From positions 96,001 to 160,000 of IMG/VR virus record IMGVR_UViG_3300029288_000056: DNA of 64,000 nt; one strand, given 5' to 3'. How positions within the stretch are numbered: position 1 is the stretch's first letter; the number at the start of each line of letters is the position of its first letter. Shown here piece after piece: positions 1 through 14,937 of this stretch. Both the position numbers and the translations under genes were made by a program. Under the pieces are notes generated by a model, which was given only the letters and a program-made list of their open reading frames with translations, did not search any database and was not told where the DNA came from. The DNA comes from a virus. Taxonomy: Duplodnaviria; Caudoviricetes.

Positions 1-382
1 TTTGAGATAATGTGATGTTGTTTCCAGCTGCGAAGACTATTGCGCCAGTACTGCTGTTTAGAGACTGCACACCCGGTGCGACAGAGCCGGTCATTGTACT
101 TCCGCTTAATCCGAATGACAGGTTATTGGAGTTCGAAAAGACTACCGTTCCACTAAGGATCGTGGACGCACTATCTGCTATTCTCACCCCTGCACCCGTA
201 CCGACTATGGCATCTACGTAAGACTTGTTAGCAGCATCCATGTCACTAACGCATAGATCAACGTTGACGATCCGATGACTGTTAGCATTAATATAGGAGC
301 TTGACGAAGCGTCCGTGTTATATCTAACGACGGCGTCTCCGTCAAACAGATTGTGTAACGCTGATTGCTGCTTATCTAACAT
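1..382 (-). CDS. Tail fibre/adhesin-like protein, N-terminal part (runs off window edge)
   Basis: Not in ORF track. ATG at 382 with GGAG RBS; reads MLDKQQSALHNLFDGD...HRIVNVDLCVSDMDAANKSYVD...GTVVFSNSNNLSFGLSGST...VQSLNSSTGAIVFAAGNNITLSQ, open to position 1. DAANKxYVD neck motif and S/G/N/T-rich beta repeats are typical of fibres. Confidence 0.75.
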   Translation of the reverse strand, partial: MLDKQQSALHNLFDGDAVVRYNTDASSSSYINANSHRIVNVDLCVSDMDAANKSYVDAIVGTGAGVRIADSASTILSGTVVFSNSNNLSFGLSGSTMTGSVAPGVQSLNSSTGAIVFAAGNNITLSQ

Positions 383-1259
383 TAATCTCCGTTATCTGAT
401 AGATCTTGGAAGGATTGTAAATAAAGACCACACCGCCACCATCGTAGGCGTCGATACCTTCATCTATTATTCGTTTTGTATATTCTTGAGGCGACTCACC
501 GAAATGAGAGTCTCTTTGGTCGTATTCGCCGGCTACGTTACCTCTGAACTTCAGTTGAAGCACGGCGTATTTCTCGGTGTTAAATGGTTTTCCCGGGTTA
601 GTGAAATAATTGGTTGCGTTTTTAAGTGTGTGCATACAACTCACCGCGTAGTCGTTTACCCAACGCGGAGCTATCTTTGACAGCTGAAATCCGTTGGCCA
701 GTATCGACTCAACGTTTTCCCTTTTTGTAGTGTGATAAAGGGTCAGCGTTTTTGTTTCAATTTCCGCCGTTAGAAAGTTAAATTTGCTCGCCGCCATATC
801 ATCTAGACGAACGTTACCTTCTGGTCTATAAGGTTTGAGCAGGTCTTCAAGGTTAGCAGTTTCAGAAAGTGCCAACCAAGCCTCTGTAACGACATTCCAA
901 ACAACGCTTTGTATAGTATTAAAAGTGAGACCAGTCGCATCTTCCTTTTCTTTTATGTTATTTACTGTAACATCTACTAACTTGCCGGTATCGTTCCAAC
1001 TAAAAACTAACTGGGATGATTTTGTATTAAACCATTTTCTAATAAAGTCGGTCATAAAATTTTCCCCAGCCGTATTTAAAGCATATCCATTATAGTTACG
1101 CATTACACCGAAGAATAACGGGTCACCAATAAATGAAATAGCATGCATAACTTCAATACCTAAGACTAAATGGATAATTACATTTGTTGGTATATCATTC
1201 CAAGCACTCGCCCGATCACCAAAACTAGCGTTGGTTAAAAACTCTGTAAGTTTGTTCAT
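372..1259 (-). CDS. Tagged two-module protein with C-terminal ADP-ribosyltransferase-like (H-type) domain
   Basis: N-terminal MNKLTEFLTNA tag; internal AASKFNFLTA tag; then LYHTTKRENVESILANGF, resembling the LYHGT...I...GF strand-1 motif of PARP/DarT-like ARTs. Confidence 0.65.
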   Translation of the reverse strand: MNKLTEFLTNASFGDRASAWNDIPTNVIIHLVLGIEVMHAISFIGDPLFFGVMRNYNGYALNTAGENFMTDFIRKWFNTKSSQLVFSWNDTGKLVDVTVNNIKEKEDATGLTFNTIQSVVWNVVTEAWLALSETANLEDLLKPYRPEGNVRLDDMAASKFNFLTAEIETKTLTLYHTTKRENVESILANGFQLSKIAPRWVNDYAVSCMHTLKNATNYFTNPGKPFNTEKYAVLQLKFRGNVAGEYDQRDSHFGESPQEYTKRIIDEGIDAYDGGGVVFIYNPSKIYQITEINVR

Positions 1260-2047: not shown

Positions 2048-2674
2048 TTAGGTATTAAAGATATATTCCGCTACCTGTTGAAATACTATATGGTAAGACT
2101 CGTTTAATAAAGCGAGCTCAAAATTACATTGTTTACTTATTCGCTCTATAAACTTTCGATTAGCTTCATAGGCCGAGCTAGTATCGATCTCGTCTGTTTT
2201 TGTTGTATAGCAATACCTCAATGAATCTTCCGGCCAGCTATGCCTATCACCAATTGGGTGAGCCTCTATGTTTGATGCAGGATTTAGACTGTCGTCATAG
2301 AAGCGATCCCATACTTCCCCCGCTTGAAAAGAGGTGTCCCCGTCAACGTCCGACGCTAAGCCGTATCCTTCTGACCCAGCCTCTTGCATTGCAATAATAT
2401 ACATAGGTGGCCCATATCCGTTTCCTCGTGTAAGAGCTAACTCAACTGTCTTAAACTCATCATAACTTTGTTCAACCACCAACATGGCGATTGACCTATA
2501 GTTAATAAAATCCGCCAAACTATCCACATCGTCGAATCTTTCGTCGGTAACTAATAAGTGTGGATCATAAAGGACATAACCTATATCATAATCATTAGGG
2601 CTAAAAGCTGCTAGTGCCAAGCCTTGTATGCTTTTATACGAAGCATCTAACAAAAACGACGTTAGTTTGTTCAT
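2048..2674 (-). CDS. Tagged GNAT-like repeat-family protein
   Basis: MNKLTSFLLDA tag; GYGPPMYIIAMQ...GLASD...TS..A..VWDRF family motif. Confidence 0.7.
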   Translation of the reverse strand: MNKLTSFLLDASYKSIQGLALAAFSPNDYDIGYVLYDPHLLVTDERFDDVDSLADFINYRSIAMLVVEQSYDEFKTVELALTRGNGYGPPMYIIAMQEAGSEGYGLASDVDGDTSFQAGEVWDRFYDDSLNPASNIEAHPIGDRHSWPEDSLRYCYTTKTDEIDTSSAYEANRKFIERISKQCNFELALLNESYHIVFQQVAEYIFNT

Positions 2675-3205
2675 TTATCTCCTATTATAAGTAACTTCGT
2701 ACTTGCCCGGATAGACAATACACTCTTTTTCTAATTCAATTGCATTAAGAATTTTATCTAATTCCGAATCCTCGTATAGTTGCTCTAAAAATTCTTGGTC
2801 GACATCTTCATCAATACTATCCATTAGATATTGAGAGAAGGCATACACATCGAGAGCGTCGGCTTTAGGATATTTTTGAGCGTCTAGCTCTAGCACGTTG
2901 TTCCCAAAGCCCAAACCTTCTATACCGTCTCCATCCTGAGTCCATGAGGTAAACTTAGCAGAACAATCATACAATGTCTTTTGACCGTTTTGCGTGGGGA
3001 TTGGAAAACAATAAGTCGTCAGTTCACCGTCGTCCACTGCTCTGTAGATGTTTGATTCTAAATCATAATGATATTTGCCGGCCCACTTCAACAGAAGATC
3101 GGTTGGCTTATCCTCACCACCTCTAACCCATGAACATAGGTCAACGAGAGCCTCTATAAATACGGAGGCTTTCTCCGCTAGTAAAAACGATGTTAGTTTG
3201 CTCAT
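2675..3205 (-). CDS. Tagged ADP-ribosyltransferase-like protein (R-S-E type)
   Basis: MSKLTSFLLA tag; IYRAV...FTSWT...ELEKECIV matches the R / S-x-[ST] / E-x-E arrangement. Confidence 0.65.
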   Translation of the reverse strand: MSKLTSFLLAEKASVFIEALVDLCSWVRGGEDKPTDLLLKWAGKYHYDLESNIYRAVDDGELTTYCFPIPTQNGQKTLYDCSAKFTSWTQDGDGIEGLGFGNNVLELDAQKYPKADALDVYAFSQYLMDSIDEDVDQEFLEQLYEDSELDKILNAIELEKECIVYPGKYEVTYNRR

Positions 3206-4137
3206 CCTTGATGATCCCTTAAGTAATCTTCTAATAATCTAGAAAGCTTAGGGTCTACGTACTTCTCGTAGTCCACGTGGTTCGGTGTAGTCATCATGTA
3301 GCCCCAATTCCCGCTGCCAACGTTGTATACGAAGTGTACATCTCTAACCTCTACACGCTTAACATAGGTGCCGCTGTCTGCGTACAACCTGTCCCAAACT
3401 GCTGTAGCGGCATCTCGTGTCGCCCCCCTATCGTCACTCGCAACCGGTAGTCCGTATTTGTTTGTAATATATTGGATTATCGCCAAATAAAGCCACGCTC
3501 CATAACCGTGCGGAGCAAAGGCGCTATTAACAAAGTAATAGCCGTCGGCCTTACAGCATTGAATATGGCCGATCTCGTTGTTTACGTTAAAGTCAGTAAT
3601 CTTCATGCTTTTAGGAAACAACGTCATTGTAACGTAGTACTCCGACTCTCCAAGTGCCATCACCATGCCGTCCGGCGGTGTGAGCGCGGCGCTCAGCGGC
3701 CCTAGTAAGAACTCGGTCAGTTTGGAGGCGGCAAATGCAAAGCCTCGCTCCGGTTGTTTGGGGACCAAAGAGAAGTCTTGCGCCATCCCGTCGTTTACAC
3801 TAATGACATCAAAATCGTCGCCTCGCGCCTCTACTAAGCCTTTCATGTCGTACAAGTACCACTTTGCGTTTTCACCCCAAATGATTGTTAGTTGATGGTG
3901 AAGGCGGCCCATTTGAATGGCTTCTTCCAAAAGCATGTCAGGTACGAAGTAGGAGCGTTCTTTCCATACCTTACCCGTATTGTCAGTCCACTGGCCCACC
4001 ATATCGATAAAACCCCAGCCGTTAACCTCAAGATCCTTTTCAAGATCTTTCCAGTTATCAGAAGCGATACAGCAGAACTTTTCACCTGAATTGAAGTGCT
4101 GTAGAATACGGCCTACGGATCCAGCGTTAAGCCTCAT
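3202..4137 (-). CDS. Tagged two-module protein: DUF3293-like domain + GNAT-like repeat
   Basis: MRLNA tag; ERSYFVP...AIQMGRLHHQLTIIW (DUF3293-like); internal AASKLTEFLL tag; GYGAWLY...VASD...TAVWDRL. Confidence 0.65.
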   Translation of the reverse strand: MRLNAGSVGRILQHFNSGEKFCCIASDNWKDLEKDLEVNGWGFIDMVGQWTDNTGKVWKERSYFVPDMLLEEAIQMGRLHHQLTIIWGENAKWYLYDMKGLVEARGDDFDVISVNDGMAQDFSLVPKQPERGFAFAASKLTEFLLGPLSAALTPPDGMVMALGESEYYVTMTLFPKSMKITDFNVNNEIGHIQCCKADGYYFVNSAFAPHGYGAWLYLAIIQYITNKYGLPVASDDRGATRDAATAVWDRLYADSGTYVKRVEVRDVHFVYNVGSGNWGYMMTTPNHVDYEKYVDPKLSRLLEDYLRDHQG

Positions 4138-5720
4138 ACTTCCTCCAATTTAATATCAAGTAAGCTAAATAATTCATCCCAACTATCGGTCGCGTTGGCC
4201 CGCGTGCCACCTAGTTCATGGAAGCGGTTTATCACAAGGTTCTTAAGGGCGGCGTTTTGATCATTCACGTTAACCGTTGCTACATAGCGGTTAGCAAATT
4301 CTCTAACGCTCAACTCCATAGTTTGCAAAAATCCTTTCAGCTGCTCACGGCCTTTCCGATAGCCGCCTAGCGGCTTTAGATCGAGGCCGAGGTTCTCGCA
4401 TATCTCAAACGCGACCGCGTCCGTTAAGAATTCCTCAATCTTGTTGTTCTCCGTTGCGTTCGGGTTTGAGCTCAGAACTCCGTGAACCATTTCGTGAAGG
4501 ATCTCTTGGGGTAGGCTGTTCTCCTTTACACCGATCTCTTGAGTCTCCTCGATGTAGTAACCTTTTACGCGGTTAGTAAGTGTTTCCTCACCGTTCTTTT
4601 TATTGATTGCGTCGCTCTTATCTAACCATTCTTGATAGTTCATCATATCTATACTGGATATCTTCGGCTTGATTCCGCCAAAGTAGTCGGCGATTGCGTT
4701 GATTAGATCCTGAATAGCGGGACAGTTCAAAGGAACAGGCCGCGCATTAAGCAGAAACTCTGTCAACTTGCTGGCCGATTTCCTTTCGGCTTTCCACTGA
4801 TTGTAGGTGTTCTTCGCATTCTCGATCTGATACTTAGTAAAGAACGGAGCCTTCATTGAGTAGGCGTACTTGAGCTGTATATCCACACCATAATCGGGAG
4901 CTGGTACCCAATCATTCCTTGATGAAATAGGAGTGTGTTCAATCCGCGGGTCGTTATAGAAGCGTTGCCAAAGATCTTGCGCGGCGCTTGATGTGTTTCC
5001 TTCACCTTCATCCGACGCTAAGTCTCCTAAGACCTGCATCGCGATAAGGTATGTAAGTGCGCCGTAGCCTCCTTCTGGTCCCCAACCGCCTTCAACAGAA
5101 TAGTAGCCTTCACGCGGGTAAGCCTCAACAACACCTACTCTAGTGTGTAAGTCTGTGTAGAGTTCAAAGATCGTATATCCGTCGGAGCCTTCGTAGATAC
5201 TTAGGCCGACCTCTTCAATCGAGGGCAGGGATGCGTTTAAGGTCGATCTACTCGCGGACACCCCATATTTCCATTCTTCATACTGGCTTTCCGCCATTTC
5301 AATTTCCTGTTCATCAAAAAACGGTGTTCTCATACTATAATAACATCTAAGCCATCGCGGTTGACTTGGATGCCAATCTTTCCTTTTCATTATAGGGGTA
5401 TGCTTAATTCGTGGATCGTCATAAAACTTCTTCCATAACGCTTCTGCACTGGGAGAAGTATTACCTTCCTGTCTATCAGATGCGATCCCTCCACGTAGTT
5501 GCATGGCGAGTAAGTAACAGAGTGCACCGTAACCGTGTTTTCCTTCACTAGTTTCAACAGTACCGTAATCGCCTTCCCCATATACTTCTACTATAGCTAT
5601 TTCTCTCATACTCTTCACGCCAAGCGCCGAATCATAAAGAGAGAAACGATAGTATTCTTGATCTGAATACCAGTCTAATCCTAAACCGTCTAATGATGCG
5701 AGGCTGGCGTTTAGTCTCAT
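4134..5720 (-). CDS. Tagged three-module protein: two GNAT-like repeats + HExxH metallopeptidase
   Basis: MRLNA, SASRSTLNA and SASKLTEFLLNA tags delimit the modules; LHEMVHG...EEFLTD zincin motif. Confidence 0.7.
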   Translation of the reverse strand: MRLNASLASLDGLGLDWYSDQEYYRFSLYDSALGVKSMREIAIVEVYGEGDYGTVETSEGKHGYGALCYLLAMQLRGGIASDRQEGNTSPSAEALWKKFYDDPRIKHTPIMKRKDWHPSQPRWLRCYYSMRTPFFDEQEIEMAESQYEEWKYGVSASRSTLNASLPSIEEVGLSIYEGSDGYTIFELYTDLHTRVGVVEAYPREGYYSVEGGWGPEGGYGALTYLIAMQVLGDLASDEGEGNTSSAAQDLWQRFYNDPRIEHTPISSRNDWVPAPDYGVDIQLKYAYSMKAPFFTKYQIENAKNTYNQWKAERKSASKLTEFLLNARPVPLNCPAIQDLINAIADYFGGIKPKISSIDMMNYQEWLDKSDAINKKNGEETLTNRVKGYYIEETQEIGVKENSLPQEILHEMVHGVLSSNPNATENNKIEEFLTDAVAFEICENLGLDLKPLGGYRKGREQLKGFLQTMELSVREFANRYVATVNVNDQNAALKNLVINRFHELGGTRANATDSWDELFSLLDIKLEEV

Positions 5721-6211
5721 CTTAACACTCTCTTTTTCATTCTGTCAATTGCATCATCTATATCTGATTGGGGAATAATAGGTTGTTTTAAACTATAAGC
5801 ATATTGTGTGGCTTCTATATAAGAATCATCATCGTTATAGTTGGCAGATTCCTCTAGCCAAGTTGGTATATCTCTGTCAGGTATCATGGTGTGTTCAATG
5901 CGAGGATCGTTATAGAACTTATTCCAAAGATCTTGTGCGGCTAAACTAGTTGTAGCATCGTTGTCTGACGCGATGGCCCCACAAATTTGCATTGCGATTA
6001 AATACAAGAGGGCGCCATAACCGTGTATACCTTCACTATTTTCAACAGTCCAATAGCCATCATGGTGTTTCAATCTCATGTCAGCAAAAGAATGAAGAGC
6101 TTCGTTGCGAAGGCTCATGTTTTTATGATCGTTACGATCATAAACATACAACAACAGTCCGTCCAACGAGGCCAATCCTGCATTAAGCAGAAATGAAGTT
6201 AGTCTATTCAA
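5717..6211 (-). CDS. Tagged GNAT-like repeat-family protein
   Basis: MNRLTSFLLNA tag; GYGALLYLIAMQ..IASD..TS..AQDLWNKF. Confidence 0.7.
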   Translation of the reverse strand: MNRLTSFLLNAGLASLDGLLLYVYDRNDHKNMSLRNEALHSFADMRLKHHDGYWTVENSEGIHGYGALLYLIAMQICGAIASDNDATTSLAAQDLWNKFYNDPRIEHTMIPDRDIPTWLEESANYNDDDSYIEATQYAYSLKQPIIPQSDIDDAIDRMKKRVLR

Positions 6212-7142
6212 AGCCCCACTCCTTTGCCCTTTGAACCGCGTCGGCGATTTGTTGTTCGGTGAAGACCGGAGACTTCAGTGTGTAATAGTATTTGTAAACA
6301 TCCGACGTACCATTCCGATCTATGGGCTTCTTGTGAATTCGCGGATCATTAATCATGTGCCTCCAAAGTTCAACAGCGTCACGTGATAAGACCCCACCGG
6401 GCGATAACCCACCAAGCATTTGCATCGCGATTAGGTAACAGAGCGCTCCGTAACCATGTTCACCCTCTGCCCTCTCAACTTCCCAATAGCCAAATTCGTC
6501 TGAAGCAATTATATAGGCGGTATCATGCAAACGGTCAACGTTCTTATTTTTGTAAATCTTAAACATCCCTCTATCCATCACCAAGGCAACCTCGTCGATA
6601 GACGCAATACCGGCACTTAAAAGGAAGTTAGTAAGCTTGCTCGCGGCTTTTGTCCAGCCGTTCTTCCAATTAATAAATGTACTCGTAGCTTCGTTGATTT
6701 GATCTATGGTGAAAAATGGTACTTTCATTTCGTATCTATATCTTAAATGTTCAACTTTCCAGCGCTTCCTCTCTGGTATAAGTATCTTATCGATACGCGG
6801 ATCGTCGTAGAAGCGCTTCCAAAGAGTAGATGCGTTATCGGAAGAGTCTCTATCTTTGTCTGACGCTATACTTCCAACGCACTGCATCGCGATCAGATAA
6901 CAGAGTGCCCCGTAACCGTGATCTCCATATCCACCTTCGACGGTCCAATATTCTTCACCCTCATTGTCTTCACCCTCGTTGTGTGCGCTCACACTCGCTC
7001 TATTCATTGATCTCATAGCCTCTTCTTTTGATGTAAACAACATAAATATCCTAGAGTATATACTGCCCGGATCAGCATATAGCCCCACGTCTTCGATTGA
7101 GGCTATACCAGCATTGAGTAGGAATGTCGTTAAATTATTCAC
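6204..7142 (-). CDS. Tagged protein with two GNAT-like repeats
   Basis: Start moved to GTG at 7142 (GGAG RBS, gives MNNLTTFLLNA tag); internal AASKLTNFLLSA tag; two GYGALCYLIAMQ motifs. Confidence 0.7.
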   Translation of the reverse strand: MNNLTTFLLNAGIASIEDVGLYADPGSIYSRIFMLFTSKEEAMRSMNRASVSAHNEGEDNEGEEYWTVEGGYGDHGYGALCYLIAMQCVGSIASDKDRDSSDNASTLWKRFYDDPRIDKILIPERKRWKVEHLRYRYEMKVPFFTIDQINEATSTFINWKNGWTKAASKLTNFLLSAGIASIDEVALVMDRGMFKIYKNKNVDRLHDTAYIIASDEFGYWEVERAEGEHGYGALCYLIAMQMLGGLSPGGVLSRDAVELWRHMINDPRIHKKPIDRNGTSDVYKYYYTLKSPVFTEQQIADAVQRAKEWGFE

Positions 7143-7629
7143 TCCACTCCTTATACCTTGCGATTGCGTCATCAATCTGTTGTTGCGTGAAGAACGGTGT
7201 CTTCATCCAATAACGGTATTTAACCGCTCGGGTGTGATGATCCATACCTCTTGACCAACCTACCCGTCTCTCTTCGATTGGTTCATGCGCAATCCGTGGA
7301 TCATTGTAGAACCGTTTCCAAAGGTCTTGCGCTGAACCTGACGTGGTTGCGTCTTCATCTGAGGCAAGTGAACCGCAGATCTGCATCGCAATTAGATAGC
7401 AGAGAGCCCCATAGCCGCCTTCAGGGCCCCAACCATCTTCTACGGTCCAGTAATTATCCTGAAGACGAACACCCGTCATGCCATTTGGATCTCTAGTTTT
7501 TACTCGTCTCTGAGTAGTGTATATTTCTATATATTTGTAGTTAGTTTCGTTCCCGTCGCCGTTTTTCACGGCTACACTCTCAATAGATGGTAGTCCTGCG
7601 TTCAAAAGGAACTCGGTTAATACGCTCAT
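7135..7629 (-). CDS. Tagged GNAT-like repeat-family protein
   Basis: MSVLTEFLLNA tag; GYGALCYLIAMQ..LASD..TS..AQDLWKRF. Confidence 0.7.
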   Translation of the reverse strand: MSVLTEFLLNAGLPSIESVAVKNGDGNETNYKYIEIYTTQRRVKTRDPNGMTGVRLQDNYWTVEDGWGPEGGYGALCYLIAMQICGSLASDEDATTSGSAQDLWKRFYNDPRIAHEPIEERRVGWSRGMDHHTRAVKYRYWMKTPFFTQQQIDDAIARYKEWSE

Positions 7630-7637
7630 GTACCCTC

Positions 7638-8072
7638 CTAGTGTAGTCCGGTGCCATCACATATACTGCAGTCTTCCGACTCGTCGTCGGTGAGCCCGGA
7701 TCCGAAACATGCTGGGCAAAGTCTAGCTAAAGTGTGTTTCTCACTCGCCAATGTGTCTCCCCATTTATGAAATGTATCGTTCATGTCCATCTGTACAAGA
7801 TCGCCATCGTCGGTTTGTCTCCAAACCTTGGCCGTCCTGTTACCGGAGCGCATGATACAATCCCAAATCGCATCCTCAACTGCTGGATAGCTTTCTTCAA
7901 TTGCTAGAATGACGTATTCCTGTGTCTCAGGGTTCCAAGTTATTACCTGTTTACCATCTACAAACACGTCGTTCCCGTCGTACACATAGTCGCCCGGTTC
8001 TGGGACTGGTTCTGCTAATAGGTCTGACGTCTCGTCAGTATAAGCAGCGTTTAAAAAGTCTGTAAGTCTCAT
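7638..8072 (-). CDS. Tagged acidic protein with C-terminal DnaJ-type zinc finger
   Basis: MRLTDFLNA tag; CPACFGSG...CSICDGTG. Confidence 0.75.
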   Translation of the reverse strand: MRLTDFLNAAYTDETSDLLAEPVPEPGDYVYDGNDVFVDGKQVITWNPETQEYVILAIEESYPAVEDAIWDCIMRSGNRTAKVWRQTDDGDLVQMDMNDTFHKWGDTLASEKHTLARLCPACFGSGLTDDESEDCSICDGTGLH

Positions 8073-8090
8073 AATATTCCTCCTTTTGTG

Positions 8091-8891
8091 TTAAATTCCT
8101 GTGCGCCAAAGACTGTCGTCAGCGTTCCAAGGAGATCCGTAAGGGTCCTCTATGTAGTCGTCATCGTCAAAAACTCTAATAGTTGTATCAACCGGTTTCG
8201 TCGGATCACCTGTCGGTAGATCGGATATCCTACCGCGGGCAAAACTACCCATCGGTCTTACAAACTCATCAGCCGTCCCATTCTGTCGCGCTTCATATAA
8301 GACTTGCGCGCTCTTTATTTCGTCTAACGGAATGAGTGGATGAAGCGCAGTTAGTTTATAGAGCATAGGATCGTCTTTGGCTAGCTCAAGTCTTTGAGCA
8401 TCCTTAGCTCTTTCTTGAATAAGTTCCCGTTTAACTTCGGGGCTTTTGAACATTCTCAAGAATGCGTTCTTTGCAGGAAAAGCGAGTGCGTTGTCGCTGA
8501 TGTCCATTGCTATTCCACCCTTATTCTGATAGAGCGTCAGTGCGACCCTAATTACGATGTCCACGTTTCCCGTGGCCCAGCCGATAATGAAGTGGTCCCC
8601 TTCTCGCGCTACTGCGATACCATCCTCTATTCTGCCTGAGCCGGCAGTTAGTAAGATGTACTCACCGATTCCAAAGTCTTTAAAGTGTAGGGCGAGTTCA
8701 CCCCAAGTACCGAGCCCCTCACCTTTTGTTACTGGTGTTGACGGAGGTAGAGCTAGTGCGCCTGTTGGTTGTATCTTATAATCAGGAAACTTTGCGGCCG
8801 TTAGAAACTCGGTCAGTAGGGACGGCTTTACTTCGCTGTACAACTCCGCCGGTATGACGGATTTCCTTGCTACGTATTCTAAACTTCTCAT
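8091..8891 (-). CDS. Tagged protein with degenerate GNAT-like repeat
   Basis: SLLTEFLTAA tag near N-terminus; GGIAMD...AKNAFLRMFKSPEV aligns loosely with the family. Confidence 0.6.
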   Translation of the reverse strand: MRSLEYVARKSVIPAELYSEVKPSLLTEFLTAAKFPDYKIQPTGALALPPSTPVTKGEGLGTWGELALHFKDFGIGEYILLTAGSGRIEDGIAVAREGDHFIIGWATGNVDIVIRVALTLYQNKGGIAMDISDNALAFPAKNAFLRMFKSPEVKRELIQERAKDAQRLELAKDDPMLYKLTALHPLIPLDEIKSAQVLYEARQNGTADEFVRPMGSFARGRISDLPTGDPTKPVDTTIRVFDDDDYIEDPYGSPWNADDSLWRTGI

Positions 8892-8899
8892 AATACTCC

Positions 8900-9562
8900 T
8901 TAATGATAAAAAAAGTTCCGCGTTGCTGAACCAAATTTAACTATTATTTCACTCTCGGTATACCACTGTTTCAAGTAGTCAACGACCTGTTGGTGTAAGG
9001 CCTTCTCTGCCGAAACGTCTATTTCTGGTCTTTTGACCTTATACGCAACACTCAACCAAGGGCCTCCATCAATATAGCCGTCCCCGCCGCATCGTTCGCA
9101 ATCTTCTTCGTCTCCGTCACAATCAGGACAAACCGTTTGTGGTGCGTCATATCTTTCTTCTCTTATTATATTTGAGTTAGGGTCTTGGCTATCTATAAGG
9201 AATCTGCGCCAAACTTCTGATGCTTCATCTGATGTTCTACCTGTTATATCAGAGGCTAACCCCTTCCCTCTCGCGGTACAATCTTGCATTGCCACAATAT
9301 AAAGGGTAGGTCCGTAACCTTGCTCAGCATAAGAGTATTCTATTGTATCCTCTTGTCTGTCCTCTTGATTGTCTGAATAAACAATAAGCATCGCTATCCC
9401 ATTGTTCTGAAGGATAGGCTCAAGATTTGCATGAGCCTTAAAAGCAGAATCGTAAGTGCCCGCCAAAATTGTGTCGGGATCGTACACAAAATAGAAGAAC
9501 TCCTCTCCACCGTGGTAGGTGAATAGGGCGAGTCCTGTTATATCGCGTCGGCCTGCTTGCAT
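8900..9562 (-). CDS. GNAT-like repeat-family protein with inserted zinc finger
   Basis: MQA short tag; GYGPTLYIVAMQ...GLASD; CPDCDG...CERCGGDG insertion. Confidence 0.7.
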   Translation of the reverse strand: MQAGRRDITGLALFTYHGGEEFFYFVYDPDTILAGTYDSAFKAHANLEPILQNNGIAMLIVYSDNQEDRQEDTIEYSYAEQGYGPTLYIVAMQDCTARGKGLASDITGRTSDEASEVWRRFLIDSQDPNSNIIREERYDAPQTVCPDCDGDEEDCERCGGDGYIDGGPWLSVAYKVKRPEIDVSAEKALHQQVVDYLKQWYTESEIIVKFGSATRNFFYH

Positions 9563-10168
9563 TTATCCGCCAGTTGAAAAGAATTGGTTCATTGCGTCTA
9601 ATAAAGCGCCTCTTATTTCGTCTTCGTCAAACCATTTCTTCAAATGAACGAAGACTTGTTCATTAAGAGTAGCTTCTGCGTCGACCTCAATGGTTGGGGT
9701 CTTGATCTTGTAATAGTGGTACTGCGGCTGTTCACTGTAAGGGTCTATAGTACCCCTACCGTCACAGTTGTCTCGATCAAAAGCCGTTATATTAGAGGTT
9801 GGGTCTTCACTGTCTTCAAGAAAACGGTACCAAACTCTCATAGCTTCACCTGAGGTCTGTCCTCTCTCGTCTGAGGCTAGGCCCTTACCCCTCGCCGTCG
9901 AGTCTTGCATTGCGAGGATATACATGGTCGGTCCGTAACCTTCTTTTGAGCGCGACAGCTTTATGGAATCGTAATTTCCACGATCAGTTGTGATTAGCAT
10001 ACCGATTCCGGCATGCATAAATGTGTTGCGCAAATCATTCCTAGAAAGACCGTAGAAGTTCTCACCAAAAAGGGAGGCGGATTCATAAGCATAATAGTAA
10101 TAGTAACCGCCCGTTGCGTAGTAGAAGTAGGCGAAACCCTTTATCTCTTGGCGTACCGCGTTTAACAT
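9563..10168 (-). CDS. GNAT-like repeat-family protein
   Basis: MLNA short tag; GYGPTMYILAMQ...GLASD..TS..A..VWYRF. Confidence 0.7.
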   Translation of the reverse strand: MLNAVRQEIKGFAYFYYATGGYYYYYAYESASLFGENFYGLSRNDLRNTFMHAGIGMLITTDRGNYDSIKLSRSKEGYGPTMYILAMQDSTARGKGLASDERGQTSGEAMRVWYRFLEDSEDPTSNITAFDRDNCDGRGTIDPYSEQPQYHYYKIKTPTIEVDAEATLNEQVFVHLKKWFDEDEIRGALLDAMNQFFSTGG

Positions 10169-10713
10169 TAATAGAATCTCTCCGTCACATCATTAAACGT
10201 ATCTGTTATCTCTTCAAGTGTAAACTGTTGACGTAGAAATTCCACTACTTTATTGTTATTTTTAATCTCAGTAGATACATCAACAATTTGTCTAGACACC
10301 ATAAATGCAGCCGATGCCGATGGGGCTTTAATTATACCAGAACCAGCCTTTTGACTATCTCTTTCAAAATGATCCCAAACTGATTGAGCTTCTTCCGACG
10401 TTTCTCCGTCGTCATCAGAGGTAAGCCCAACCCCTCGTTTAGTGGCTTCTTGCATAGCAACGATATATAGAGTGGGCCCATAACCCTCTACCTCAGATCT
10501 TGCCCACTCTACAGACTCGTAGCCACCATGATCTTCTACACCTAACATTGCGCATCCAACTTCACTAAGTGCATCATAAAGGGTAGATGTGTCACCAATA
10601 TCCTCAAGATTTAAATTTAATATTGGGTCTGGGTCGTATATATAATACCAAAAGTCATAGGTTTCTCCTATAAAAAGAGCCATACCCCTTATACTTCTTC
10701 TAGCTGCTTGCAT
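10168..10713 (-). CDS. GNAT-like repeat-family protein
   Basis: MQA short tag; GYGPTLYIVAMQ...GLTSD..TS..AQSVWDHF. Confidence 0.7.
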   Translation of the reverse strand: MQAARRSIRGMALFIGETYDFWYYIYDPDPILNLNLEDIGDTSTLYDALSEVGCAMLGVEDHGGYESVEWARSEVEGYGPTLYIVAMQEATKRGVGLTSDDDGETSEEAQSVWDHFERDSQKAGSGIIKAPSASAAFMVSRQIVDVSTEIKNNNKVVEFLRQQFTLEEITDTFNDVTERFY

Positions 10714-10714
10714 A

Positions 10715-11332
10715 TTACTCCTTTAAAAAATTACTCAAAGATGCTACCCTTCTTGGGCCACTGTAACTACGGCTAAACATTATATCCGCGAGAGACCACA
10801 AGAGATCCTCGTAGTTTAAGCTGGTACGTATAATGTAAGGCCCGTCTGTACCGTGGCAATTGGATATGTCGGTATTACCTTTCGCAGTCTGGTGGTTTGC
10901 GTAAGCTTGCGCGGTGTCAACCAGTTGGCGGTCGGTTTTAAACACGTAGTTAGCGCTCACAAAGACATTCTCTCTTCTTATATCCCTTTCCTTTGTGATA
11001 CCAGAATTAGGGTCGTTTGAGATTTCGTAGAACTTGTCCCAAACCCTCACCGCGGAAGGTGACGGTTGGCCGTCAGATTCGATACCCTCTGGGCTTTCTT
11101 GCATTGCAATCATATACATCGTAGGTCCATAGCCTTCAGCGGCGACAGGACCGTGGATATTGTTGTCTTCCACTTCAATCTTCCCAAAAACCGGCCGTTT
11201 GATGTGAGACCTGAAGTCTCGCGCGTTGATGATGTCTTGGATGATTGTGTGATCGTACAATACATACAAAGATCCTGACGAAAAGAACGGTCGCTTACAC
11301 AGGGCGAGATTAGATATATTGGTTTGTAACAT
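10715..11332 (-). CDS. GNAT-like repeat-family protein with C-terminal tag
   Basis: GYGPTMYMIAMQ..GIESD..SPSAVRVWDKF; ends in VASLSNFLKE. Confidence 0.7.
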   Translation of the reverse strand: MLQTNISNLALCKRPFFSSGSLYVLYDHTIIQDIINARDFRSHIKRPVFGKIEVEDNNIHGPVAAEGYGPTMYMIAMQESPEGIESDGQPSPSAVRVWDKFYEISNDPNSGITKERDIRRENVFVSANYVFKTDRQLVDTAQAYANHQTAKGNTDISNCHGTDGPYIIRTSLNYEDLLWSLADIMFSRSYSGPRRVASLSNFLKE

Positions 11333-11975
11333 TTCTCCACCATTTTACAAATTCGTCTCTTGATTGCCAATGGTTCGGTCGGTTAACCAACCCAACCCCA
11401 TCGGGTATATCCTCTAGTCTATCCATCAACCCTTTGTCGGCAAAGTGAACCGATTTGCCGCGGCCAACTGATAAAGAGAGATACAAATCGTCGTTGAAGA
11501 TCGCTTCACTGCGATACATCGGATTCTGTGCAATGAGACCAAGACTGACCTTGGCGAGCAGGTCCTTAGAAAGCATTACAAAGCGACCTTTGATTATCGG
11601 CACAAAACCCCACGCATCTAGTGCGGTGGAGTAAGGTTTGTCTCCAATAGAAAGGTTGCGGCCAAAGGCGCCAGTAAGAACGTCAGGGTGTCGTTGGTGC
11701 ACTTCAAACGCGTCCTTAAGAAAGTCGTCGTCCTTAGGTAAGAGGTCGTCATCCATAAATACGATAGTCTGGTACTTGGAGAAGGGCGCTAAAACGATTC
11801 GCGCTAGACAACCCATATTCCAAGTTGAGTAGACGGTCTGATCTCCTTCAACCAAGTCGTCCTGTCGGTTATTGATGACTATTATCTCATTCTCTATAGT
11901 TTGCTGTCGCAGTTTGTCAATCAGTTTGCGCAACTGTGCGGGCCGACTATAGTTGAGAAGTATTATCGATATCAT
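11310..11975 (-). CDS. GT-A fold glycosyltransferase (GT2/GT64-like)
   Basis: ISIILLNYSR, EIIVINN, FMDDD (DxD) and NDDLYLS motifs. Confidence 0.85.
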   Translation of the reverse strand: MISIILLNYSRPAQLRKLIDKLRQQTIENEIIVINNRQDDLVEGDQTVYSTWNMGCLARIVLAPFSKYQTIVFMDDDLLPKDDDFLKDAFEVHQRHPDVLTGAFGRNLSIGDKPYSTALDAWGFVPIIKGRFVMLSKDLLAKVSLGLIAQNPMYRSEAIFNDDLYLSLSVGRGKSVHFADKGLMDRLEDIPDGVGLVNRPNHWQSRDEFVKWWRNVTNQYI

Positions 11976-14937
11976 TTAATAAGAACCTCGTTAGTTTACT
12001 TGCTGCAATTGTCTCAGGAAGACCGTACTTCGTTCTAAAGTCTCGACAGGATCGTATTGCACTGTCAGATTGCATTTGTCCCATAAGCTCTAGAATCTTA
12101 GGAGTGCCGGCGAGGCGGATAACCTCAGGAATCTTCAGTTGATCTTCTTTTGTAGAATTAGGCTGTAAAGCCCACTTAGCGAATTGGTAGAATGTAAACC
12201 GGTTATAAACTATCAGCTTTGCCAAGGTCTGTGCGTTTAAATGGGAATAGATTATATATACTTTAGTGTCACCCATTGAACTTACACCGCCCGTATTCCA
12301 AATTCTGTCTGCGATATAGGGGGCGCTCCAATCTCGTACTGTCCAGATTTGCGGATTCATTTCTCCCGCTCTGATCCAGTCGTCTATACTAAGCGACTCC
12401 CACGGCAATGAGACTAGAGTCTCAGGATTGTTCAGGGCGATCTCTCGGGCAATTCGCTGACCGGTACTACCAATGTCTGTGCCCGGTGGTATATCCTTCA
12501 TGTACTCTTCCGCAATCGGCAAGAACAACGCTCTCGCGTCCGAATTGTACTCGAGAATGTAGAAGAATTGGTACCAACGATCGGGTTTCTCCATCAACTT
12601 CGGTTTAACTCGCGCAAAGAACAGATTCCAGTCTATACCAAAGGCCTTAAGGATGTTAACCCAACTAGAACTCTCCAACCTATCCATCACGTCATTATAT
12701 ATTCGTTCATCTACCGTGCCTATCATCCCGATATGAGTGATGACGAACAGATCTTTTATATCCATGGACAATTGTGCCCAATTTGCGGTCGAAAGTACAG
12801 TCTTCAACTTAGTCACCCTTGCGTCATCTGGGGCTATAGGGCCACTGGTGTTAACGAGTATATTAAGTATTGTAGAAGGACTGAAGGTGTCTGCAATTCT
12901 CGGATTCAATGCCGTTACTCGTGCTAACCAGCTTGGGTCAAGCGCGCCTTCTGGAATAGTAACGCCCGCCAACATAAGGTTGGCATAACTTGCGCCCGAA
13001 CGGCCCGCCATCATATATAGGATGTCTTGCGGAACCGTCTTGAGTATGTCGATCGTGGTTTGGGGTAACGTAGCGAAAGTCTCGGGTATAACCATTGTGA
13101 ATAGTATCTTAATCCAATTAGGGTACTGAGTAATGACGTCTTTAACGTCCTGACCATCGTACTCTACCTCGGTTCGTCTGTCACCCCTCGACACACTCCT
13201 AAATGCGTCCGCGTAGTTAGCGAGGACGGGGTGAGTCTTCATAAGTGTGAGGTACTTCTTAAGCAAGTAGTACTTGGCGGGTGTAACCGTCTTACCCTCG
13301 AGCTTCGGAATAAGGTACTGACCCAACTTACGACCGCTGACTACGAGGGTGAAGATTTGATCACCGGTCAACTCAACGCCCTGTTGAGTTAATGAGGCCA
13401 TGAAGGTCGTAAACTGTGTCTTATTCTTAATCGCATTGTCGGCTGCGTATAGGAAGTCGTCCATTGTACCAGCCTGTTGAATACTGCTCATTACGCGATC
13501 CATCATTTGATACTTAAGGGCTATGCTTAAGACGTAAGAGGAAGGTATCCTTCCGTTAGAAACCAAGTAGTCGAAGAGCTCTTTGGCTAAGTCGGCAATA
13601 TCGGGTAAGGAGAACAGTTGGTCAAAGGTTCGGTTCCAATCGCTGATTCGGTTACGACCAATGGTTTCAAAGGCCGCGTTCTTATCTAAGAGGTTGGCCT
13701 GTACTAGGTATAAGATGTCCTTAGGCTCACTGACCAATATACCCAAGTAGTTGCGTAGCTCGCTATTCATACCTATCAATCTTGTTATACGATCAACCGT
13801 CATATTACTAATGATGAATGGGTATCCTGAGTTCTGAGCAAAGTCGATCATTGAAGGTTTACGTGCTAATAACGTATCTACTAGATCATCCTTACGATTT
13901 TGAATAGCCCATCTTACCAAATCTCTCTGTGCCCTCTCCTGCATTGAGTCAAAATAATTGATATCCATTCCTACAAGTAACCCTAGATCGTCTTTTGATA
14001 GGTTGTTATAATCGATTTGATCCTTAAAATAAGGATTCCCGCTAGTTAATTGCTGCACCATATAAGTCTGTGGAATCGTATAGTTTCCTACACCTTTTCG
14101 GTTAAGAATCTCCCATAGGAAGGCGCCGCGCTCTGGGGTAGAATATAAGAAAGAACCAATCGGTGTAGACGGATTCATATTGTCTATGCACAAGGGCATC
14201 CATTTCCTCATATCCGCGGTGATTAGTTCGTTCCACATACCCGGTCCTAACAGCTTTATGATCTCAGGGGTTGGTTCAATACTTCCATCTATTAGACCGG
14301 CGAGAGTCGCAGGGTCGATGTATGTAACGGTGTAACTCGTATTCCCCAAGGTCCAATGCGCTCTACGTTCAACATTACTATAGGCACGACTGAAGAGAGC
14401 CCCAGCCGCGTCCTTAAGTTTGTCGTTGGTTATATCGGGGTGTTCCGCTTGAAGGCTTTGCCCAAGAGCGAGGGCGGCGTCCATCGGTTCAATGATGGTA
14501 GTAATGTAGTAGACGTAGTCTTTAGGGTTGTCAGCCTGCATTGTGTCGTCGGTAACGCGTTGAGTCGCTTTAACGGGGGATCCGGGCTGCCGAGAGTCCA
14601 AGAGGAATCTCGCATAGACCGGTTCAGCGTCACCGGAGGTTGAACCAGAAGCATCTGATGCAATCCCCTTCCCGTCTTGCCACGCCCTTTGAGCACCACA
14701 GACATAGGCCGTTGGCCCGATTTCGAGCCGTTTGTTTCCGGCCGAGTTCTGCACTGTATAGTAGTCGCCGCGTTCGTTGTACGACAACCGTACGTACCCG
14801 ACTGCATCTATACCGAAACGCTCCTCAGCGTTGTACCTCCATATAATAACGTAGATACTTCCAGCTAGACTCTGTCCAATGAACGACAGGGCAAATTCGT
14901 TACCTAGCGATCTTCTCGCTGCACTTAAACGATTCAT
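11947..14937 (-). CDS. Large tagged protein: N-terminal GNAT-like repeat + long helical region
   Basis: MNRLSA tag; IGPTAY...GIASD..TSGDAEPVYARF; C-terminal AASKLTRFLLN tag; GGAGG RBS. Confidence 0.75.
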   Translation of the reverse strand: MNRLSAARRSLGNEFALSFIGQSLAGSIYVIIWRYNAEERFGIDAVGYVRLSYNERGDYYTVQNSAGNKRLEIGPTAYVCGAQRAWQDGKGIASDASGSTSGDAEPVYARFLLDSRQPGSPVKATQRVTDDTMQADNPKDYVYYITTIIEPMDAALALGQSLQAEHPDITNDKLKDAAGALFSRAYSNVERRAHWTLGNTSYTVTYIDPATLAGLIDGSIEPTPEIIKLLGPGMWNELITADMRKWMPLCIDNMNPSTPIGSFLYSTPERGAFLWEILNRKGVGNYTIPQTYMVQQLTSGNPYFKDQIDYNNLSKDDLGLLVGMDINYFDSMQERAQRDLVRWAIQNRKDDLVDTLLARKPSMIDFAQNSGYPFIISNMTVDRITRLIGMNSELRNYLGILVSEPKDILYLVQANLLDKNAAFETIGRNRISDWNRTFDQLFSLPDIADLAKELFDYLVSNGRIPSSYVLSIALKYQMMDRVMSSIQQAGTMDDFLYAADNAIKNKTQFTTFMASLTQQGVELTGDQIFTLVVSGRKLGQYLIPKLEGKTVTPAKYYLLKKYLTLMKTHPVLANYADAFRSVSRGDRRTEVEYDGQDVKDVITQYPNWIKILFTMVIPETFATLPQTTIDILKTVPQDILYMMAGRSGASYANLMLAGVTIPEGALDPSWLARVTALNPRIADTFSPSTILNILVNTSGPIAPDDARVTKLKTVLSTANWAQLSMDIKDLFVITHIGMIGTVDERIYNDVMDRLESSSWVNILKAFGIDWNLFFARVKPKLMEKPDRWYQFFYILEYNSDARALFLPIAEEYMKDIPPGTDIGSTGQRIAREIALNNPETLVSLPWESLSIDDWIRAGEMNPQIWTVRDWSAPYIADRIWNTGGVSSMGDTKVYIIYSHLNAQTLAKLIVYNRFTFYQFAKWALQPNSTKEDQLKIPEVIRLAGTPKILELMGQMQSDSAIRSCRDFRTKYGLPETIAASKLTRFLLNDIDNTSQL

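Follow-up and report, generated by a model that had tools for sequence, protein, structure and literature searches.

The DNA analysed here, referred to as the window, is a stretch of 64,000 nucleotides (nt) comprising bases 96,001-160,000 of the 297,328-bp IMG/VR virus record IMGVR_UViG_3300029288_000056 (Duplodnaviria; Caudoviricetes), the estimated completeness of which is 94%. Window coordinates refer to this stretch, and genome coordinates to the whole record. Between window positions 2048 and 14937, an initial annotation made from the letters alone had noticed about 14 diverged copies of one GNAT-like (acyl-CoA N-acyltransferase-like) domain in 12 genes. A hidden Markov model (HMM), which was derived from the copies and run iteratively on every open reading frame (ORF) of the genome, recovered from this region 13 copies of one ~150-amino acid (aa) domain in 11 minus-strand ORFs, with independent E-values (i-E) of 5e-31 to 3e-47, so that all 13 of the clear copies are real (Table 1). 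The further, degenerate copy that had been read in o8091 scored only at the margin, with 6.7 bits and an E-value of 0.006 when 19 proteins were searched. Its alignment covers beta5-alpha4-beta7, with G-N-V at the position of the G-Y-G loop of the other copies, and given the low score and the missing loop, o8091 is at best a decayed copy. Nine additional copies lie outside the array, at genome 36.2, 63.8, 65.9 (two), 77.4, 78.4, 80.7, 81.4 and 92.2 kb, and the genome-wide total is 22 domains in 19 ORFs. We show herein that this family expanded within the phage lineage, that its members are predicted to adopt a GNAT-like fold, and that they are accompanied by a short recurrent peptide (hereafter, the tag) that might address them to the capsid.

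The copies, or modules, are strongly diverged. In an alignment of the 13 window copies, pairwise identity to o7135 ranges from 22 to 52%; G74, Y78, Q83 and A100 are invariant, and G72, Y73, S90, S97, W104 and D110 are nearly so (o7135 numbering). A maximum-likelihood tree (quick search, with Shimodaira-Hasegawa-like approximate likelihood ratio test support) was calculated from the 22 copies of this genome and 96 copies from other phages. The 22 own copies form two groups, nine of the G-Y-G-A type and thirteen of the G-Y-G-P type, and the branch that separates the 96 outside copies has 93% support. Only one outside protein falls within the own groups; it comes from a sister contig and is 99% identical. 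In the window, the G-Y-G-A group comprises the modules of 3202, 4134 (a and b), 5717, 6204 (a and b) and 7135, and the G-Y-G-P group those of 2048, 8900, 9563, 10168, 10715 and 11947. Thus, the two spatially clustered subfamilies seen by the initial annotation are upheld by the tree, and so is the expansion that it had inferred. Since the own copies cluster apart from the outside copies, the expansion happened inside this phage lineage.

The minus strand carries almost all long ORFs of the window, and the GC (guanine-cytosine) skew is negative throughout, from which it follows that the window is a single long co-oriented block. The array lies on the same strand as the portal and terminase genes and upstream of them, within one long co-oriented block. 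The portal gene (genome 21.6-24.5 kb) and the large terminase gene (24.5-25.9 kb) are the only head genes that can be named; apart from these two, just one HNH protein received a name when 30 large ORFs upstream of the window were scanned against Pfam and PHROGs. The nearest cultured terminase, from an Acidobacteria phage, is 28% identical, which marks this as a phage without a close cultured relative. Neither a megablast search of the whole stretch nor a tblastn search with two family members gave a match among 50,697 cultured phage records.

Table 1. Domain copies and associated features of the array (window coordinates).
Feature	Position	Strand	HMM i-E	Content
o2048, 208 aa	2048-2674	-	2.7e-46	Tag MNKLTSFLLDA and one G-Y-G-P module; G-Y-G-P tree group
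o3202 module	3205-3726	-	4.7e-37	C-terminal half of ORF 3202-4137
o4134 first module	5247-5720	-	7.9e-47	ORF 4134-5720; G-Y-G-A subfamily
o4134 second module	4767-5246	-	4.8e-41	Followed by internal tag ASKLTEFLLNA (residue 319)
o4134 C-terminal domain, ~200 aa	4137-4766	-		After internal tag; HEMVH zincin-type (HExxH) motif in translation
o5717, 164 aa	5717-6211	-	1.3e-42	TTG start, tag NRLTSFLLNA and one G-Y-G-A module
o6204 first module	6642-7142	-	6.5e-45	ORF 6204-7142/7175
o6204 second module	6207-6641	-	9.1e-36	Internal tag ASKLTNFLLSA before module
o7135, 164 aa	7135-7629	-	3.2e-47	Tag and module; first copy folded
o8091, 266 aa	8091-8891	-		Tag at residues 24-36; possible degenerate copy
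o8900, 220 aa	8900-9562	-	1.3e-44	G-Y-G-P module
o9563, 201 aa	9563-10168	-	8.7e-47	G-Y-G-P module
o10168, 181 aa	10168-10713	-	4.8e-40	G-Y-G-P module
o10715, 205 aa	10715-11332	-	5.1e-35	G-Y-G-P module; C-terminal tag-like ASLSNFLKE
o11947 N-terminal module, 175 aa	14398-14937	-	5.1e-31	ORF 11947-14937, 996 aa

Several ORFs of the array hold more than a single module. The N-terminal part of o3202 (window 3727-4137, minus strand) is DUF3293-like (E 4.7e-5; at 24.4 bits, the match falls just short of the 25-bit cut-off). No Pfam family was matched by the last ~200 aa of o4134 or by the remaining ~800 aa of o11947. The likely start of o6204 is the GTG at 7142, which would give (M)NNLTTFLLNA.

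Predicted fold and conserved motifs

Two copies were modelled with AlphaFold2: o7135 from the 13-copy alignment (predicted local distance difference test, pLDDT, 85.6; predicted template modelling score, pTM, 0.82) and o8900 from a 92-sequence alignment (pLDDT 88.5, pTM 0.86). The o8900 model contains a Cys-rich insert in the beta6-beta7 loop (137-167, low pLDDT) and two extra C-terminal helices. Both models were compared by VIA-align, an exhaustive structural comparison, with 48,161 PDB representative chains. For each model, 50 of the top 50 rows were GNAT-fold proteins, with Z-scores of 5.9-7.4 for o7135 and 5.2-7.3 for o8900 over aligned lengths of 95-135 residues in top rows. As Z < 8 is the caution range of the tool, the weight rests on the homogeneity of the 100 GNAT rows out of 100. 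The best rows were the ICL2 GNAT domain for o7135 (Z 7.4, root-mean-square deviation (rmsd) 3.5 Å, 117 residues) and Elp3 for o8900 (Z 7.3, rmsd 3.0 Å, 99 residues), and TacT3, AtaT, NatD and AcrVA5 were also among the matches. RimI (5isv) is one among many tied structural matches (Z 6.6 and 5.5), and no sequence link to the RimI-like clade could be made.

Other comparisons gave the same picture, some of them with predicted models on both sides. Foldseek matches to the PDB were weak (E >= 2e-3), and almost all of them were GNAT proteins; in BFVD, uncultured phages contributed the top matches, proteins named for a 'NAT_SF domain' (E 8e-6 to 1e-3). A shape search of the ESM Atlas led to virus-only clusters with TM-scores of 0.70-0.73 over ~150 residues, one with PF00583 on 15% of its members and another named GNAT. 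A search by language-model features returned the same neighbours, together with sister clusters bearing PF00583 on 13-15% of their members; the Atlas clusters nearest to o9563 in this search were viral, with PF00583 on part of the members. In addition, one intermediate copy from outside (P0055, residues 653-722) is matched by PF00583 (E 6e-8) as well as by the family HMM, and the two matches agree in register.

At the sequence level, the family lies beyond the GNAT models of Pfam. None of these matched any window copy at E <= 1, and PF00583 had no match anywhere in the genome at E <= 10. Among 80 full-length representatives, PF00583 matches fell on separate canonical GNAT domains, except for the one intermediate copy, and a search for canonical GNAT relatives of P0018 (985-1115) found none. 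The domain resembles the GNAT superfamily in its predicted fold, in a G-x-G loop at the beta4-alpha3 junction, in an alpha4 helix with an S/N-x-x-A-x-x-hydrophobic-aromatic motif, and in having a conserved cofactor side and a variable acceptor side, but differs from it in that all 22 copies escape the GNAT models of Pfam and in that the modules have an extra C-terminal helix.

The beta4-alpha3 loop of GNAT proteins is motif A, which binds the pyrophosphate of CoA. In both models G72-Y73-G74 lies between beta4 and alpha3, as expected from the earlier assignment of the G-x-G loop to motif A. Strand beta5 ends in S-D (S-P in the second module of o6204), and alpha4 bears the pattern S-x-x-A-x-x-V/L-W-x-x-F (S97..A100..W104..F107). 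Motif B of the Pfam GNAT consensus reads N-x-x-A-x-x-l-Y-x-x-x-G-F, which the alpha4 pattern mirrors in the models. Across the 96 family members, conservation is highest at G72 (93%), G74 (100%), P75 (93%), Y78 (100%), A100 (100%) and W104 (97%). A Lys stands one residue before G-Y-G in 58% of the family, but not in the copies of this genome.

Variation among the 22 own copies is distributed unevenly. Column entropy is 1.5-2.1 bits in the beta4-alpha3-beta5-alpha4 core and 2.7-3.5 bits in beta1-beta3 and the helices between. The hypervariability ascribed to the N-terminal half was thus borne out in part by entropy, but this half remains alignable family-wide, with a conserved L-A-L in beta1 and L-Y in beta2; moreover, variability is not confined to it, since the beta6-beta7 loop, beyond the core, is also high in entropy and rich in indels (mean of 7 gapped sequences per column). 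In GNAT proteins, the acceptor site is built by elements of the beta1-beta3 region and the beta6-beta7 loop. With a conserved core and variable acceptor-side elements, the set of modules reads, on the predicted models, as a single shared cofactor site combined with many acceptor sites.

A GNAT-like fold is established as far as prediction allows: the two AlphaFold models, in which a fold other than GNAT would have spoken against the initial annotation, are GNAT-like by VIA-align and, weakly, by Foldseek against the PDB, and the NAT_SF proteins of BFVD agree. We consider it highly probable that the domain derives from the GNAT fold, of which, to judge from the models, it is an unnamed, virus-specific branch.

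Tags, leaders and relatives in other phages

The tag, with the consensus (A/M)(S/N)KLTxFL(L)xA in this genome, precedes every module, whole or in part. It opens o2048, o5717, o6204 and o7135, and it separates the modules of o3202, o4134 and o6204; in o3202, for example, ASKLTEFLLGP stands at residue 140, before the GNAT-like module. A tag or tag-like piece also ends o10715 and o11947, the latter terminating in ASKLTRFLLND... Unrelated ORFs carry the tag as well, among them 372, 1256, 2675 and 7638, all four of which begin with it. In the genome as a whole, ~36 occurrences were counted on the coding strand, in the interval 33-108 kb. The tag is conserved as a peptide and not as DNA, and because its synonymous codon positions vary freely, it is a signal at the peptide level; a role as a nucleotide-level recombination signal or an RNA signal was rejected for the same reason. 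In the o7135 model, the tag region is disordered or weakly helical (pLDDT 48).

Genes of the G-Y-G-P cluster (8900-11332) start with M-(L/Q)-(N)-A-.., which corresponds to the L/Q-x-A part of the tag, and the preceding gene ends in a sequence like A-x-x-x-F-F/L, so that at each junction a stop and a start codon seem to interrupt a tag. This arrangement suggests either that an older polyprotein was split into separate genes in this cluster or that genes were fused in the other one.

A comparable feature was found in relatives from other phages. Almost all stand-alone relatives start with a helical leader of 10-30 aa that ends in ...L-x-E-A-A-(K-T), and a few start straight at the post-leader M-P-A-K-T. 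The pattern [LIVMF]-x-E-[AMSG] is present in the leader of 48 of the 90 stand-alone outside members, where it is 6.7 times as dense as in the remainder of the protein; 20 of these sites share a single alignment position. In the arrays from IMG/VR described below, the leader reads ...L-L-D-E-A-A-K. The site rule of the T4 prohead protease is L/I-x-E. Prohead proteases of the T4 family strip N-terminal propeptides from internal proteins and from Alt, and the corresponding sites are A-x-E in SPN3US and S/A/G-x-E in phiKZ (PMC5694885). The leader ends of the wider family are like T4-type prohead-protease sites in sequence. A different shared leader, M-x-L-Q-E-R-x-L-R-L-A-W-G-L-S-G, was observed in the Logan contig ERR4405439_5545 (locus L014, 10001-14536) on three neighbouring genes, two of them with the present GNAT-like domain; these genes adjoin a Peptidase_C14 (caspase-like) gene and lie near a Tad6-family gene.

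The family is large. A profile search of 1.84 billion representatives yielded 921 proteins at E <= 1e-3, which are clusters at 50% identity, and 58 at E <= 1e-10, the top rows being the proteins of this genome itself. A word-indexed protein search gave four matches, all without names, and full-text literature searches found no paper describing this GNAT-like family. Most relatives are stand-alone proteins of 180-230 aa. Others contain up to four domains per chain (P0018 and P0058 hold 3-4 copies) or combine the domain with other activities: P0065 consists of ART-PolyVal (ART denotes ADP-ribosyltransferase), NUDIX and the GNAT-like domain, and P0060 of the GNAT-like domain, a canonical GNAT and a poly(A) polymerase (PolyA_pol). 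P0065 is encoded two genes downstream of a large terminase gene; the 833-aa ORF between them was considered as a portal and rejected, being HNH/homing-endonuclease-like.

Searching IMG/VR with a degenerate DNA pattern for K-G-Y-G-P-x-x-Y-x-x-A-M returned 32 loci, including a contiguous 7-copy array in a 119-kb fragment and 4-5-copy arrays in two further fragments; with o7135 alone as the query, no relative was found in IMG/VR. At one locus (L034, G005:C1:66475-66744), on a provirus of 177,880 bp, the domain is part of one uninterrupted frame 6199 aa long, and similar giant ORFs of 2000-4000 aa occur in six other IMG/VR contigs.

Proposed packaged effectors and alternative readings

We propose, with a probability of about 0.5, that the array arose by in-genome expansion of packaged, injected acyltransferase-like effectors. 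The tag would address the tagged proteins to the assembling capsid, as the capsid targeting sequence (CTS) of T4 does for internal proteins and Alt, and it would also mark a processing site at which the modules are cut and released. The released modules would then be injected into the host along with the DNA and act on different host targets as effectors that transfer acyl groups or at least bind CoA or nucleotides. It is thus the packaging, cleavage, cofactor, catalysis and targets of the modules that we infer. For packaging by itself, the balance tips slightly in favour; for catalytic activity of the modules as acyltransferases, it is evenly poised. A bolder version is tentative and rather doubtful, namely that dozens of tagged modules are loaded like beads on a string, cut at the tags and co-injected, and that the 22 diversified acyltransferases would each disable a different host defence or variant.

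Precedents exist for separate parts of this proposal. The internal proteins IPI-III and Alt of T4, with their CTS, have in common with the present genes a short N-terminal peptide shared by unrelated or rapidly diversifying proteins (PMC3012670, PMC5694885), an effector character, and, in the leaders of the wider family, an L-x-E followed by Ala like that of prohead-protease sites. They differ in that there is no sequence similarity, in that the tag of this phage is also internal and C-terminal and has no conserved Glu, and in the far larger scale seen here. Large tandem arrays of diverged paralogs are also known from the heads of giant phages (the 20-member family B of SPN3US; phiKZ_IP, PF12699), where they were found by mass spectrometry (PMC5694885). 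These head paralogs have no assigned fold or function, whereas the present family is GNAT-like in its predicted fold. Homology to family B was rejected (the best E of the HMM against gp138-154 and gp160 was 0.39, and hhalign gave 0.06%), and PF12699 had no match at E <= 1.

GNATs have been listed among the protein-modifying domains of injected polyvalent proteins (Iyer et al. 2017, PMC5512222). Like these, the present domain occurs in large multidomain phage proteins beside ART-PolyVal, and also solo near late or structural genes; the polyvalent-protein setting invoked by the initial annotation is therefore matched by P0065, in which ART and NUDIX stand beside the same domain. Multidomain cases in the window are o4134, with two copies and a zincin-like domain, and o3202, with the DUF3293-like domain and one copy. 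The two published families (PMC5512222) are RimI-like, whereas the present one is missed by GNAT profiles, reaches four copies per polypeptide and 22 per genome, and has its own leader. AcrVA5 and Rac (PMC7824862) are likewise small phage proteins of the GNAT fold, which disable host proteins by acetylation. AcrVA5 was among our structural matches (Z 5.9 over 82 residues and Z 5.3 over 86 residues), but neither protein is related to the family in sequence, and both are single-copy, untagged and not packaged.

A number of observations weigh against the proposal. Every structural Z-score is below 8, a range that may reflect no more than a common arrangement. Pfam, NCBIfam and PHROGs match neither the window copies nor the 96 family members; profile searches of PDB sequences with the window and wider-family alignments returned chance-level rows only and no GNAT; and hhalign of the 96-member alignment against two single canonical GNAT domains found the right register at a probability below 7%. 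In the o8900 model, two strands precede the helices instead of the canonical one, and helices resembling alpha1 and alpha2 are entirely missing in the G-Y-G-A subfamily. The Q/R of motif A, expected three residues before G-Y-G, is absent across the alignment, as the initial annotation had remarked of the usual R/Q-x-x-G, and a Trp occupies the position at which many GNATs have a catalytic Tyr; activity may hence be lost or changed. Since the tag of this genome has no conserved Glu, this phage gives no clear sign of a T4-type L-x-E cut. Neither a prohead protease nor a major capsid gene could be named in the genome by Pfam and PHROG scans; PF03420 (T4 prohead protease, Peptidase_S77) and PF07068 (gp23) had no match in it, but the controls for these two models matched nowhere either. 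Finally, because no cultured relative was found, no virion proteome exists.

Some of these points favour other readings, the most serious of which keeps the GNAT-derived fold and gives up the enzyme. The modules, as internal head proteins or cargo, would still be packaged but would work through binding: they might fill or organise the capsid, as the paralogs of phiKZ and SPN3US may do, sequester a nucleotide-like host signal or block a host protein. The altered residues of motif A and alpha4 fit such a role, as do the second module of o6204, without the S-D of beta5, and o8091, in which the G-Y-G loop may be gone; the ligand bound in GNAT pockets contains ADP, which would make a binding-only role plausible, and giant phages do carry large families of head paralogs to which no function is assigned, such as the 20 of SPN3US (PMC5694885). 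On the other hand, positions of the cofactor loop and alpha4 (G, G, P, Y, A and W) are 93-100% conserved across ~100 distant members, a pattern not readily accounted for in a filler protein. Neither the HMM nor hhalign relates family B of SPN3US to the modules, and fusions of the domain with evident enzymes (ART, NUDIX and nucleotidyltransferase) occur in other phages. We regard a purely binding role as unlikely.

Alternatively, the modules could be active GNAT-like enzymes that are made during infection and never packaged. The tag would then have another role, for instance to localise the proteins, to assemble them with a shared partner, to regulate their turnover or to have them processed by a protease unconnected with the capsid. 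Rac of the phiKMV-like phages (PMC7824862) and AcrVA5 do act inside the cell without packaging, and the lack of a recognised protease or capsid gene, together with a tag devoid of the conserved Glu of T4-type sites, would be natural on this account. It is less easily reconciled with the position of the array, upstream of the portal and terminase genes in one co-oriented block on their strand, or with relatives in ART-PolyVal polyvalent proteins two genes past a large terminase, with leaders that end in L-x-E|A-A at a fixed position, and with tags between modules and at C-termini, as expected for a processing or address signal. We think it quite improbable. Most remote of all is the idea that the GNAT resemblance is fortuitous, owing to a common alpha/beta sandwich, and that the modules are a new fold family with an unrelated function. 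The low Z-scores, a Foldseek E of at best 2e-3 in the PDB, the missing sequence-profile link and the unusual order of the N-terminal strands would all allow it, but they are outweighed by GNAT-fold proteins in 100 of 100 top VIA-align rows from two independent models, BFVD NAT_SF matches down to E 8e-6, sister Atlas clusters with PF00583 on 13-15% of their members, the intermediate copy that matches PF00583 and the family HMM in register, and motifs that fall on the A and B positions of GNATs.

GNAT-fold effectors and packaged polyvalent proteins were already known. What appears new is a large virus-only GNAT-like family (921 clusters) that lies outside every curated library and bears a propeptide-like leader, and, in one phage, 22 diverged, tagged copies joined into polyproteins that look cleavable. 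Provided that the modules are injected enzymes, they would form a natural series in which one cofactor core is combined with a range of acceptor surfaces, and which might be used to find targets of phage acyltransferases at the earliest stage of infection. For an uncultured phage lineage, the tags are a candidate signal for loading the capsid, and the family is an annotation handle on many 'hypothetical proteins' of large environmental phages. Should the beads-on-a-string version hold, the virus-specific GNAT clade would serve many uncultured large phages as a general anti-defence platform that can evolve.

Neighbouring genes

Three other genes in and around the array gave matches. The tagged protein encoded at 372-1259 (minus strand) has a faint PARP/ADP-ribosyltransferase match (E 0.085) in its C-terminal part, which would agree with the mention of ART domains in the initial annotation. 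Another tagged protein, o7638 (window 7638-8072, minus strand), has a Cys-rich C-terminal part of the form CxxC..CxxC and a weak match to DnaJ_CXXCXGXG (E 0.011); the beta6-beta7 insert of o8900 is likewise of the CxxC..CxxC form. Inside the array itself lies an untagged gene for a family 2 glycosyltransferase (window 11310-11975, minus strand; PF00535, E 4.5e-6), the ORF of which overlaps its neighbours on both sides.

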